A stretch of 64,000 nucleotides of DNA from Eledone cirrhosa (Eukaryota), in NCBI GenBank assembly GCA_964016885.1, contig CAXHJY010001376.1:16813-80812 (forward strand), written 5' to 3'. The notes under the pieces are model-generated. The model worked only from the letters and a program-made list of their open reading frames with translations. It had not been told where the DNA came from and made no database searches. Positions 16,028 through 53,465 of the stretch are shown piece after piece (position 1 is the stretch's first letter; each line of letters begins with the position of its first letter). A program made the translations under genes and the position numbers.

Positions 16028-16222
16028 AACGAAGGAATTGTGGTAAGGAACCAGATGGACCATAACGCACCAGAGTACTCAATACTTAGGGTAGTAGAGT
16101 GGGTAATAGGAAAAAGTATGACCCCGACGGCAGAGCTCAAGCCGTATCGATGGCTATTTCAGTCCAGAAATAGCCGTCGAAACAGCTTGAGCTCAGCCGT
16201 CGGGGTCATACTTTTTTCTATT
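16028..16222 (-). mobile_element. Fold-back mini-element, family E (3' half of a hammerhead)
   Basis: Palindrome centred on GGCTATTTC-agtcca-GAAATAGCC; arms carry GAAA-CRGC..GCCG-TC-GGGGTC; (TA)n on both sides; 8 copies in the window. Confidence 0.8.
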
Positions 16223-16411
16223 ATATATATATATATATATATATATATATGTATATATATATATATATATATATATATATATATATATATATATATATAT
16301 ACATATATGCGTGTGTGTGTACACACACACACACACACACACACACACACACACACATATACATATATATATATATATATATATATATATATATATATAT
16401 ATATATATATT

Positions 16412-16480
16412 ATAAGAACAGATTAAAGTTTAAGTAAAGAATCGCTGCTATCACCCTTAACGGGATCTTCTGAAACAATA
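16412..16480 (-). mobile_element. Family G fragment with decayed hammerhead-like motif
   Basis: Matches 35815-35885. Confidence 0.55.
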
Positions 16481-17037
16481 TATAATCATTATCGAGCCCT
16501 CTTCTGATTTTAATCTTCACACACACACATATATATATATATACACACATCTACATATATATATATATATACACACATACATTATATAAGTGCATGTCTT
16601 ATGCAGGTTTTTTGTATGTTGCGTTATTGCATTTCTATATATTTACATGCCTACAGATGTGTATATACGTGTGTATATATGTATTAGTGCACATGTGTAT
16701 GGTGTGTCTTTCACTGTGTGTATGTGTGTTTAGTATATCTGTGTGTGTGTGTGTGTGTGTGTGTGTGTTATTGTATGTTCTTTCAAGAAGAAAGTGTCTC
16801 AGAAATGCAGACAACCCTTTTCAATGTAGGTTGACACGGGAGAGAGAAGAGAGAGGAGGGGAGAGGGAGAGGTGGAGAAAGAGAATGAGGAAAGAGAGAG
16901 AGTGTGTGAGGTGGAAAGAGAGAGATAGAGAGAGGGGTGGGCTGGAGAAGAAACAGTATAACCGTAGCAGACACCCGAAACTATATAATTAGGTCACAGC
17001 TCTCTTATACAGACGGCATTGCACAGACCTAGATAGG

Positions 17038-17480
17038 GCAGAAACAACAGCAGCAGCAGAAACAACAACTAACACAACAGCAACAACTAACACAACACCA
17101 ACAACTAACACAACACCAACAACAACAAATACAACAACAGCAGCAATGAACGCAACTACACAGCAGCAACAACACCACAACAGCAGCAACAATAACAACT
17201 AACACAACAGCAACAACACCAACAGCAACAAATACAACAACAGCAGCAATGAACGCAACTACACAGCAGCAACAACACCACAACAGCAGCAGAAACAACA
17301 GCAACAGCAACAGCAACAAGCAACAACAACACCAACAAGCAACAACAACAACAGCAACTACACCAGCACCACTACCAACAACAACAACAATGGCATCAAC
17401 ACCAACAGCAGCACCAACAGCAGTAACAGCAACACCAACACCACCAATAACAACAACAGCGGCATCAACACCAACAACAA
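17038..17480. repeat. Degenerate (CAA/CAG)n tract with internal ~120-bp duplication
   Basis: CAAATACAACAACAGCAGCAATGAACGCAACTACACAGCAGC occurs twice. Confidence 0.85.
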
Positions 17481-17512
17481 GAAGTATATAGACAAATATC
17501 TAGATATAGAAA

Positions 17513-17641
17513 TAATTGTTTCTACTTTTGACACAAGGCCAGCAATTACCTCAGTGCATTACTGGTACTTTATTTTATCGACCCCGTAAGGATGAAAGGC
17601 AAAGTTAACCTCGGCGGGATTTGAACTCAGACCGTAAAGGG
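17513..17641 (-). mobile_element. SINE family S1, 5'-truncated
   Basis: Homology to 965-1150. Confidence 0.85.
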
Positions 17642-17829
17642 ATACATAGTGATAAATATCTACTTTTTAAAAATAGGATCGTTGTAGTAAGAAGTGACAA
17701 AGAACTGGAGGTGTGAGGTTGGCCCGGTGATAAAAGGTCGCGGGTTCGTACCCTCTCTCGGGCACCGTGAAATATAGAATGGTGAAGGGACTCAACAGAC
17801 AGTGACTTGACACCATGGGAATTGCTAGA

Positions 17830-18945
17830 GTTGGTTGTGGTAAATATTGGTAGCCCACTGTGGTGGGTAGTTGTGGTAAATATAGCTAGACCACTGTGGG
17901 GTAGTTGTGGTAATTATAGCTAGACCACTGAGGGGTAGTTGTGGTAATTATAGCTAGACCCTTGTGGTGGGTAGTTGTGGTAAATATAGCTAGACCACTG
18001 AGGGGTAGTTGTGGTAATTATAGCTAGACCACTGTGGTGGGTAGTTGTGGTAATTATAGCTAGACCTCTGATGGGTAGTTGTGGTAATTATAGCTAGACC
18101 ACTGAGGGGTAGTTGTGGTAATTATAGCTAGACCACTGAGGGGTAGTTGTGGTAATTATAGCTAGACCACTGAGGGGTAGTTGTGGTAATTATAGCTAGA
18201 CCACTGTGGTGGGTAGTTGTGGTAAATATGGCTAGACCACTGTGATGGGTAGTTGTGGTAATTATAGCTAGACCACTGAGGGGTAGTTGTGGTAATTATA
18301 GCTAGACCACTGAGGGGTAGTTGTGGTAATTATAGCTAGACCACTGAGGGGTAGTTGTGGTAATTATAGCTAGACCACTGTGGTGGGTAGTTGTGGTAAT
18401 TATAGCTAGACCACTGTGATGGGTAGTTGTGGTAATTATAGCTAGACCACTGTGGTGGGTAGTTGTGGTAATTATAGCTAGACCACTGTGGTGGGTAGTT
18501 GTGGTAATTATAGCTAGACCACTGAGGGGTAGTTGTGGTAATTATAGCTAGACCACTGTGGTGGGTAGTTGTGGTAATTATAGCTAGACCACTGTGGTGG
18601 GTAGTTGTGGTAATTATAGCTAGACCACTGTGGTGGGTAGTTGTGGTAATTATAGCTAGACCACTGTGGTGGGTAGTTGTGGTAATTATAGCTAGACCAC
18701 TGTGGTGGGTAGTTGTGGTAATTATAGCTAGACCACTGTGATGGGTAGTTGTGGTAAATATAGCTAGACCACTGTGGTGGGTTGTTGTGGTAAATATAGC
18801 TAGACCTCTGATGGGTAGTTGTGGTAAATATAGCTAGACCACTGAGGGGTAGTTGTGGTAATTATAGCTAGACCACTGTGATGGGTAGTTGTGGTAAATA
18901 TAGCTAGACCACTGTGGTGGGTAGTTGTGGTAAATTTAGGGAGAT
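17830..18945. repeat. 36/34-bp minisatellite
   Basis: Unit GTAGTTGTGGTAATTATAGCTAGACCACTG(TGGTGG or AGGG), ~30 copies. Confidence 0.95.
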
Positions 18946-19137
18946 ACTGTAGTGTGTAGTTTTAGTAAATATAAGATATTGTGGTATCTATATACATTGT
19001 GGTATGTAGTTGTGGTAAAATATAGGGAGATGTTGAGGTATAGACAGCGTGGTATGTGGTAGCAGTAAATACAGTGTAGTATATATAGACAAGATTATGT
19101 TAATGGATTTTAAGTGGTTTTTGTACCAACATCTCAT

Positions 19138-19420
19138 CTTTTCTTCTTTTTCTTCTTAGCCCATTCTTGGGAGGAACGTGGGGGTAGAGTCCTGAACCAA
19201 CTGACGTGGATGCGGGTGGATTCCCAAGCCAGGTGAACCCGGGTGGACCCCCAAGCGAGACTAGCCGAGCTCATAGATGTTATCAAACCATCTTGCTCGG
19301 TGTCTACTCATGGGTCTTTTGTCCAGAGATTCTTTCCTAAGATATTCCAACCACATGCCCATAGTATCGGAGCTGTAATCTCTCAATTCGGAGAAGAAGT
19401 AACAGCTCCACTTGGAGATC
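19138..19420 (-). mobile_element. RTE-clade (Rex3/Expander-like) LINE 3' fragment
   Basis: Minus strand encodes decayed LRIERLQLRYYGHVV; (AAG)n tail; same family as 52445-52800. Confidence 0.7.
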
Positions 19421-51392: not shown

Positions 51393-51634
51393 CTACCTTA
51401 CAAATAGAAATTAATAATAAAAAAGAACATTAAATAATTTAGTTCTAAAATCATGAAACTATAAATTTAGACAGGGTGTCACAGCTGGGACATTTATTGA
51501 ATGATAAATATCGACACAGAATAAACGGTTTGCATACGTTTCTGTGTCAAATATAGTAAGACACACATACACACACAGAGACACACATACAGATACGGAA
51601 CAATACGTCTTGCATACGTTAGTGTGTTGAATAT

Positions 51635-51736
51635 AATAATTGTTTCTACTTTAGGCACAAGGCCAGCAATTACCCAGTGCATTACTGGTACTTTATTTTA
51701 TCGACCTCGTAAGGATGAAAGGCAAAGTCAACCTCG
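51635..51736 (-). mobile_element. SINE family S1, 3' half
   Basis: Homology to 965-1150. Confidence 0.85.
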
Positions 51737-52249
51737 AATAATGTTTTATTTTCATATGAAGGTGTGTCTGTGTGTATTGAGTGAATATCTAGAGAAAGTG
51801 TGACACAAATTATGTGTATGTAAGTTTTTATTCTTAATAATGCATACACGCAAATACACTCACACAGATACTGACACACACACACACACACACACACACA
51901 CACATACACAGACACACACACAGACACACACACAGACACAGACTCAGACACACGCAGACACAGAGACACAGATAAACACTGACTCTGAATCACAGGTATA
52001 CAGTTACACACACACACACACACACACACACACACACACACACACACACACACACACACACACACAGACTCAGACACAGACACGCAGACACAGATAAACA
52101 CAGACTCTGAATCACAGGTATACAGTCACAGACGCACATTTAGGGTGGTTTCTTTCACTGGGTACTGGCCTGATATAATCATTGTTAACTCTCATTTTAT
52201 CAAAGTGTTTTCTTTAAAGAGTTAAAGTACATCACTTTCATTTACAAAA

Positions 52250-52428
52250 TTGGCAGTATCGGTAGAGGGTCGGACGCCATGCTTTCCAGCATAGTTACGT
52301 CCCTTTACGGTCTGAGTTCAAATCCCGCCGAGGTTAACTTTGCCTTTCATCCTTACGGGGTCGATAAAATAAAGTACCAGTAATGCACTGGGTAATTGCT
52401 GGCCTTGTGCCAAAAGTAGAAACAATTA
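52250..52428 (+). mobile_element. SINE family S1
   Basis: Near-consensus copy. Confidence 0.9.
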
Positions 52429-52444
52429 ATTAAGGCTAATAATT

Positions 52445-52800
52445 AATCGGAAGGGTCTTTGGAGTAACATTACTCGATAGGGTGCGTAGCTCTGAGATCA
52501 GAGAGTCACTCCAGGTAGAGCTGCTATTTCTCCGAATTGAGAGATCACAGCCTTGATACTATGGGCATGTGGTTAGAATGTCCCAGGAAAAAAATCGCTA
52601 GACAGATTTTGCTTGCAAAACCAGCCGGCAGGAGACCCTTGACAAGATGGCTGGATAATATCCTTGAGCTTGCTGGTCTCGCTTGGGGATCCAGACGGAT
52701 CGGTTGGAGACAGTTGCTTCTGACAGGACCCGTTGGAAGGAGTGTTTGAGGTCTCAGTCCCCTTCCCACCACCCTCTCAAGAAGAAGAAGAAGAAGAAGA
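52445..52800 (+). pseudogene. RTE-clade (Rex3/Expander-like) LINE 3' fragment
   Basis: RVFGVTLLDRVRSSEIRESLQVELLFLRIERSQP*YYGHVVRM...GRRPLTRWLDNI; (AAG)n tail. Confidence 0.8.
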
Positions 52801-52983
52801 ATTAATCTGTTACGTTAACAACAAAAACTAACGATATATATTTCAAGCAGTTTTATATAGCGCACGACAGACTTTATTATTTTGAATGAAAACACATATA
52901 TGACTTGAAGTGAATCAAAAGTGCTTACAGCTTATCTCTCATGTACTTTACTTCTTTAGTCTGTTTTAGTTATCACAGCCAAA

Positions 52984-53192
52984 AGGCCGTATCAGTAGAG
53001 CTTCGGGCACCATGCTTTGCGACCTAATGTTACGGCCCTTGACGATCTGAATTCAAATTTCGCCGAAGTTAGCTTTGCCTTCCATCCTTACGGAGTCGAT
53101 AACTAAAGAACCAGTAGCGTACTGGGGTCGATTTAATCGACTTTCCCCTCCCCCAAATTCGTCCACCTTGTGTCTAAATCAGAAACCGTTGT
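52984..53192 (+). mobile_element. S1-related SINE, older subfamily
   Basis: Homology to 21285-21480. Confidence 0.7.
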
Positions 53193-53272
53193 TACAGCCA
53201 AGGTCACCCTAAAGCACCACTATCAGATATATCGTACGTTTGCATCCACACGAAATTTATATATATATATAT

Positions 53273-53465
53273 AACGAAGGAAGTGTGGTAAGGAACCAGA
53301 TGGACCATAACGCACCAGAGTACTCAATACTTAGGGTAGTAGAGTGGGTAATAGGGAAAAGTTTAACCCCGACGGCAGAGCTCAAGCCGTTTCGACGGCT
53401 ATTTCAGGTCCAAAAATAGCCATCGAAACGGCTTCAGCTTTGCCGTCGGGGTTAAACTTTTTCCA
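53273..53465 (-). mobile_element. Family E fold-back mini-element
   Basis: Arms around GACGGCTATTT-caggtccaa-AAATAGCCATC. Confidence 0.85.

Follow-up and report, generated by a model that had tools for sequence, protein, structure and literature searches.

How are the inverted pseudo-long terminal repeats (pLTRs) of Penelope-like elements (PLEs) formed? This open question is addressed here by the junctions of a palindromic repeat, family E, in a stretch of 64,000 nucleotides from Eledone cirrhosa (contig CAXHJY010001376.1, positions 16,813 to 80,812), which is called the window below. A first-pass annotation of the window had assigned family E to the 3′ end of a PLE with a hammerhead ribozyme, and had proposed that a nascent complementary DNA (cDNA) folds back on the helix II hairpin of the ribozyme, primes itself, and is copied to a fixed TA-microhomology point. 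I propose instead, at a probability of about 0.7, that the palindromes are head-to-head pairs of 3′ ends, which would come from two run-off cDNAs of a capped RNA and be inserted in (TA)n. The shared stop of the arms inside helix II is likely to be the capped transcription start of the element RNA. Thousands of junctions favor two run-off cDNAs over self-priming and predict the RNA start to the nucleotide. If this is true, DNA alone would suffice to place the transcription starts of each PLE family at its palindrome centers, and a start site inside the hammerhead would be a simple way to leave the cutting ability to the downstream ribozyme copy only. Mechanistic work on PLEs is called for in PMC8557442, and PMC2377424 sees no obvious route to pLTR regeneration.

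The parent element and its ribozyme

Family E was located in the window by blastn, with the five copies cited in the first-pass annotation as queries. Eight pieces were found (16028, 23150, 25235, 27466, 31644, 44460, 47436, and 53273), while a ninth match of 25 nucleotides (nt) at 28238 (E 0.01) was set aside. At all five cited copies the palindrome is present as described, with GAYRGCTA and TAGCYRTC paired immediately 5′ of GAAAC (16149/16171, 27587/27615, 44583/44610, 47481/47500, and 53394/53417). No CTGANGA occurs in any copy, and the annotation was right that the 5′ half of the ribozyme core is absent. It had counted eight inverted copies; eight pieces do exist, but only five are complete palindromes, as 23150 and 25235 lack the center and 31644 is a single arm. 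(TA)n flanks seven of the eight on both sides and 31644 on one side only. The fixed arm end was also borne out: counted from the G of GAAAC, the arms without a tail stop within 1–3 nt of a common point at +42. The tailed arms stop at +120, so that the tail, put at about 85 bp in the annotation, measures 78 nt and is one-sided. An assembly artefact was rejected, as the ends are asymmetric and the arms differ by point changes.

In the host genome of 3.0 Gb, exact patterns with a center of at most 30 nt matched at least 13,592 short family E palindromes, and an exact pattern for tailed arms matched 16,868; the controls (a reversed pattern for the palindromes) gave none. About 30 family E elements were counted by eye in an unselected 600 kb. 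Two identical palindromes with the same center stand in tandem at locus L284 (264–671), probably by local duplication.

Parents were reached by tracing longer arms to copies attached to an open reading frame (ORF), and a PLE parent of the kind that the annotation had looked for was found (L218). The parents L218–L225 have a single ORF, in which a reverse transcriptase (RT) is followed by a C-terminal GIY-YIG endonuclease (EN), as judged by eye from YRDD and VIYQ..KAYIG. The layout of L218 is an inverted tail-less arm, a direct pLTR with tail, the ORF, and a pLTR with tail; the 78-nt tail is the 5′ leader ahead of the ORF. A single tail was seen in each of 61 arm pairs, a sample partly selected for a tail. 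The ORF has 207 homologues at E≤1e-20, many of about 700 amino acids and with coral and argonaut entries among them, while a Pfam scan and a PDB sequence search of it gave no match. Compared by eye with section 11 of PMC8557442, the parent has the motifs of the Hydra clade: DKT, a CxCX5C linker, CxxC, CxH, no CCHH, and a (TA)n target. From these features, family E is read as 3′-terminal stubs of a Hydra-like Penelope retroelement whose full-length parents exist, the label "Hydra-like" being given on protein motifs and layout.

Family E shares with the C-terminal EN+ PLEs of the Hydra clade (Craig et al. 2021, PMC8557442) the motifs, the (TA)n target, the inverted 5′-truncated copy, and the one-sided tail. 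In contrast, its unit is about 3.5 kb (generally under 3 kb in the Hydra clade), its tail is 78 nt (30–40 nt), L218 has RWR in place of RWK, and its ribozyme has a U3-A8 or C3-A8 core and a 52-nt helix II region where the Hydra clade has a canonical hammerhead in the pLTR. A relative of family E may be among the Hydra families and ribozymes that are listed in the supplement of that paper. The layout, the tail, the TA target, and the U3-A8 core are already known features.

What is the form of the parent ribozyme? GACCCC-CTGANGA had been predicted upstream in the parents, and this did not hold. Instead, the order is ACCCC, a core of (T/C)TGANAA, a helix II region of 52 nt, GAAA, helix III, GTC, and GGGGT. 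This pattern fits 2,360 arms, and the 100 matches listed, counted by eye, have U3 in 71, C3 in 29, A8 in 98, and the canonical CUGANGA core in none. The mismatched C3-A8 core belongs to an abundant subfamily. In 51 parents examined, U3-A8 was found in 40, the C3-A8 mismatch in nine, and U3-G8 in two, giving A8 in 49. A search for canonical CTGANGA at 8–38 nt before GAAAC gave 42 matches, and the 30 inspected were chance matches, palindrome centers, or cross-family joins; the search missed the parents because the real helix II is longer. In the helix fit, 92.4% of the cells are paired, and the four helix II pairs that changed on both sides mostly reflect one subfamily split. The covariation score exceeds all 500 shuffles and all slid controls. 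The minimum free energy fold is a three-way junction in three of three parents (z −1.3 to −2.3). An Rfam scan of the window gave no hammerhead among the matches listed (150 of 379), which were all hairpin-driven, miRNA-type, and below gathering scores. Thus, the parent ribozyme is genuine in form, a type I hammerhead fold with a non-canonical core and a covarying helix II, and is predicted to cleave itself.

A few arms start exactly at the predicted cut site, namely both arms of L288 (1222–1343), both arms of L185, and the window arm at 23230. These are five of 208 arms examined, most of which were chosen to span the cut site. They hint that the cleaved RNA may sometimes be copied, a possible footprint of cleavage in vivo.

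The family E ribozyme resembles the PLE hammerheads of Cervera and de la Pena (2014, PMC4209133) in being type I and in the pLTR, and in the G10.1-C11.1 pair and the palindromic loop 3. U3-A8 covariation is reported there for Schistosoma PLE hammerheads. In contrast, the family E helix II is far longer, has an inner hairpin, and contains the putative start, and C3-A8 occurs in 29 of the 100 matches listed. A non-LTR retrozyme, in which each tandem non-coding monomer has a whole hammerhead, was rejected, as the window has no family E tandem array and the stubs carry half a ribozyme.

The stop inside helix II

Where do the arms end? Ends were counted by a strict extension rule (lenient extension over-called some ends) in the first 100 exact tail-anchored arms on one contig, where the anchor leaves out arms ending downstream of it. 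Relative to GAAA, 76 tailed arms end at 12–23 nt, three at 24–59 nt, and 10 at 11 nt or less, while 11 run through. In the unselected 600 kb, 24 of 56 matches start at −12 to −22 and two at −172 and −204, with none between; the other 30 start downstream or are short fragments, five being arms of a divergent subfamily without a matching reference. As the annotation had supposed, the junctions are not random and cluster strongly in the helix II region. Arms without an inverted partner, including the one ending at 31703 in the window, stop at the same site as the palindromic ones. The hot spot is not a splice acceptor either, as the AG is retained in the arms and no upstream exon is shared.

The edge of the hot spot is the A of a TTAGTY or TCAGTY hexamer at position −18. 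YYAGTN lies exactly there in 46 of 51 parents, and a subfamily with an otherwise different loop II still has the hexamer. I call TYAGTY initiator-like by its likeness to the initiator consensus. A perfect CC(A/T)6GG box, presumably CArG-like, lies 62–65 nt before the putative start in 52 of 73 parents (L063–L121, L226–L245), including the divergent subfamily. The D. virilis Penelope pLTR carries an initiator and an internal promoter (PMC2377424).

If the RNA starts at this A, does the cDNA bear a mark of the cap? None of 67 parents has a G just before the −18 A. In 2,859 palindromes both arms are complete to this A, and the next cDNA base past position 18, tallied by eye in the 100 matches listed, was C in 27 and T in five (p = 1e-4), or C in 20 and T in four when single-base inserts were taken out (p 2e-3). 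Genome-wide, both arms have the added C in 245 palindromes, compared with seven for a double T and 44 for a double C one base inward, the last control not being normalised for the number of arms ending there. In 28 of the 50 double-C junctions listed, counted by eye, the two added bases are 0–1 nt apart. An untemplated 5′ G is an accepted sign of RNA cap copying in L1 (PMC9341517). The consulted account of the Hydra clade in PMC8557442 has no description of arms that end at one site with an extra G, and the listings of a literature search, which reached few subscription journals, showed no paper on a cap G or a start site at PLE palindrome junctions.

It could be thought that two cDNAs are made, but that a folded helix II in a longer RNA stalls the RT, which then adds an untemplated C, with no transcription start at the site. 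In three subfamilies an inner hairpin is predicted whose 3′ strand contains the stop, and the ends are spread across 12–23 nt, both of which suit stalling. However, the added C is position-specific (245 against 44 one base inward), the initiator-like hexamer is kept although the surrounding loop has changed, and few stops are found in the stronger 5′ strand of helix II or in helix I, where only the three of 100 arms at 24–59 nt end. Moreover, the same signature is seen in families with centers outside the ribozyme. Stalling is quite unlikely to be the cause.

In several unrelated palindrome families of the window, both arms retain a whole canonical hammerhead, and the centers lie upstream of the core. 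They lie in TA repeats at 63534–63930, 34934–35193, 49100–49290, 39070–39190, and 32129/33393. In two of these families, 980 palindromes are centered just before a motif that I take to be YY1-like, with a presumably NRF1-like motif upstream, and the centers are 70–90 nt upstream of an intact ribozyme. Among the 50 matches listed for this pair, at least 18 have a one-base T-C-A center by eye, one has TGCA, and none has TGTACA. The palindrome center thus goes with a position that is promoter-like, and not with helix II.

Fold-back or two cDNAs

Self-priming was put forward for PLE palindromic junctions in PMC3846280, and a single cDNA that folds back on helix II or a nearby hairpin, to be copied to the TA point, would explain why the centers sit in the helix II region and why the arms share a subfamily in most copies. 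Among 100 tailed arms, a single one (L135) is compatible with folding back at the inner hairpin. The first-pass annotation had taken the central hairpin for stem II. It is rather the inverted arm meeting the original one, and the native loop of helix II is gone; the loop of 31–33 nt is kept in none of the seven palindromes with a center of 28–48 nt among the loci examined.

A comparison of the arms speaks to the same point. Among 57 short palindromes, 31 have the longer arm on the tailed side and 13 on the tail-less side, while both arms are equal in the other 13. The preponderance of longer tailed arms is as expected from fold-back, but the excess of 3 nt or more that a loop needs is found in only 16, and in 26 the tail-less arm is at least as long as the tailed one. 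Of 28 loci aligned, 12 were distinct long elements with both arms mapped (repeated loci and those that aligned poorly, L117 and L134 for example, were omitted); the tailed arm is longer in seven, and the tail-less arm is longer in five, by hundreds of bases. A tail-less arm that is far longer cannot be a copy of the tailed cDNA. The arm lengths are independent of each other. Furthermore, a terminal untemplated base could not be copied across a loop of 0–1 nt, yet the 28 double-C junctions mentioned above are of this form; both arms can share the untemplated G. Uninverted arms also stop at the same site. For most copies fold-back is largely contradicted, and I regard it as improbable. The TA microhomology, seen before as the endpoint of copying, is better read as the start of the second cDNA.

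Were the two cDNAs copied from one RNA? In 61 pairs, the arms are identical in 32, have private changes in 25, and are of mixed subfamilies in four, of which only L148 is convincing; its arms are two common haplotypes different at three sites. The arms are mostly of one subfamily, and thus the usual template is one RNA or a pair of sister RNAs. At six loci (L031, L037, L042, L048, L052, and L053), a family E arm is joined head to head with an arm of another PLE family. The partner arm stops within a few bases of one place in L031, L037, L048, and L052.

Later deletion of the center of long inverted repeats, or spread of the unit as a miniature inverted-repeat transposable element (MITE) or fold-back DNA transposon, is highly improbable. 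Some copies do have microhomology deletions (23150 and 25235 in the window; L130 and L190), and the copy number is very high. But deletion would neither stop at one nucleotide nor add a G on both arms, the ends are unequal with the single tail in 61 of 61 pairs (in that partly tail-selected sample), and what is repeated is the 3′ part of an RT-EN element. Neither the equal terminal inverted repeats nor the fixed internal sequence of a MITE or fold-back transposon was found. The centers vary from copy to copy, in the window as well, which also led me to reject palindromic masters copied whole.

How, then, would two run-off cDNAs of a capped RNA make a palindrome? Transcription by RNA polymerase II would begin in the upstream pLTR, with the A of TYAGTY as the first base, so that the 5′ copy in the RNA would miss the leading half of the ribozyme core and remain capped and uncut. 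The GIY-YIG nuclease would cut both strands of a TA repeat. From the two cut strands, two RT molecules would then prime internally at two UAU sites, mostly on the same or sister RNAs, and each cDNA would reach the cap after about 60 or 138 nt, often adding a C opposite the cap G. Both cDNA ends would finally be end-joined, with minor trimming and the insertion of templated bases. The long arms (11%) may come from priming in the downstream pLTR or on read-through RNA. The stubs would thus owe the missing first half of the core to an RNA that itself starts past it, and not to a hairpin-driven fold-back.

Several points weigh against this proposal. The start site and the cap are read from DNA alone, and the added C could merely be the preferred untemplated base of the RT at any template end. 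A candidate TATA box at −30 was dropped, being absent from the divergent subfamily. The ends at 21–23 nt (18 of 100) form a second cluster, in which extra A's often follow, and call for slippage or another start. Arms of one palindrome almost always share a subfamily, which fold-back predicts likewise. The tailed arm is more often the longer one (31 versus 13 of 57), which together with L135 leaves room for some fold-back. The cross-family joins could be later deletions between neighboring elements. Finally, the PLE protein studied in PMC11167929 shows no homology between primer and template, while a TAT overlap of 3–4 nt occurs here. With regard to the second cluster, A-runs follow arms ending 21 nt before GAAA in L131, L162, L178, and L264 and near 27608 in the window; they resemble the product of RT slippage at a terminal U3 in the template.

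A bolder reading, which I consider rather doubtful, is that the promoter starts inside the ribozyme of the element itself in order to disable cutting in the 5′ copy and leave the 3′ copy able to cut. The RNA would have a terminal redundancy of 41 nt, and a strong-stop cDNA, retrovirus-like and primed near the 5′ end, would have to jump to the RNA's 3′ end. The palindromes would be failed jumps, and pLTR regeneration would be accounted for. However, no template-jump junction was found among the loci examined, and among the 100 matches listed of the 2,360 arms, none of the long arms has a G at −1.

The proposal of two run-off cDNAs has parallels in known systems. In vitro, the PLE protein of PAc Poseidon cuts and extends both strands of an AT-rich target, starting RT from two internal sites that bound the tail, and a dimer is predicted (Frangieh et al. 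2024, PMC11167929). Family E is like it in these two internal starts and differs in the TAT overlap and in having the tail before the ORF; the 5′ junction, the RNA start, and inverted repeats are not addressed in the consulted text of that study. Penelope of Adineta (Arkhipova et al. 2013, PMC3846280) has similar head-to-head inverted pLTRs, junction palindromes, an optional tail, and an initiator-like motif. These were explained by self-priming on an antisense template, whereas family E favors two run-off cDNAs of a capped sense RNA. In L1 twin priming, both target strands prime as well, but the parts of the RNA that become inverted to each other do not overlap; in contrast, family E copies one segment twice.

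Copies in the window

The individual window copies are ordinary dead stubs. In copy 1, the tailed arm (16028–16160, minus strand) comprises the 3′ half of the hammerhead, the 3′ strand of helix I, and the tail (about 16028–16105), and extends to 12 nt upstream of GAAA. The first base of its tail-less arm (16161–16216, plus strand) is the putative +1 A, 18 nt before GAAAC at 16179 as counted from the sequence. Copy 2 (23150–23245) is a tail on the minus strand fused to a plus-strand tail-less arm that starts at 23230, the predicted ribozyme cut site; a microhomology deletion may be an alternative to a start at the cut site. Copy 3 (25238–25397), of the divergent subfamily, has a tail-less arm (25238–25277, minus strand) and a tailed arm (25278–25397, plus strand), and its center is partly deleted. 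In copy 4 (27466–27663), the tailed arm on the minus strand reaches 21 nt before GAAA plus extra A's, and the plus-strand tail-less arm begins at about 27611, 12 nt before GAAA.

Copy 5 (31646–31704, minus strand) is a lone, uninverted tail-less arm that ends exactly at the putative +1 (31703). It is followed by a C at 31704, found in no parent, which is the extra-G signature. Copy 6 (44460–44662) is again of the divergent subfamily; the tailed arm (minus strand) reaches 17 nt and the tail-less arm (plus strand) begins 16 nt before GAAA, and compensatory helix II changes were found in its parents. Copy 7 (47439–47621) has the reversed orientation, with a tail-less arm on the minus strand (47439–47493), a 2-nt insert, and a tailed arm on the plus strand (47496–47621). 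In copy 8 (53273–53465), the minus-strand tailed arm reaches 12 nt and the plus-strand tail-less arm, after a short insert, begins 17 nt before GAAAC (53425).

Outside family E, the window holds a 9.7-kb array of a 12-nt unit at 1845–11544, with about 810 copies and 91% matches. A common repeat, which I take to be SINE-like (short interspersed nuclear element), lies at 767–1115, 23267–23478, and 36284–36522 as two inverted pairs and one tandem pair.

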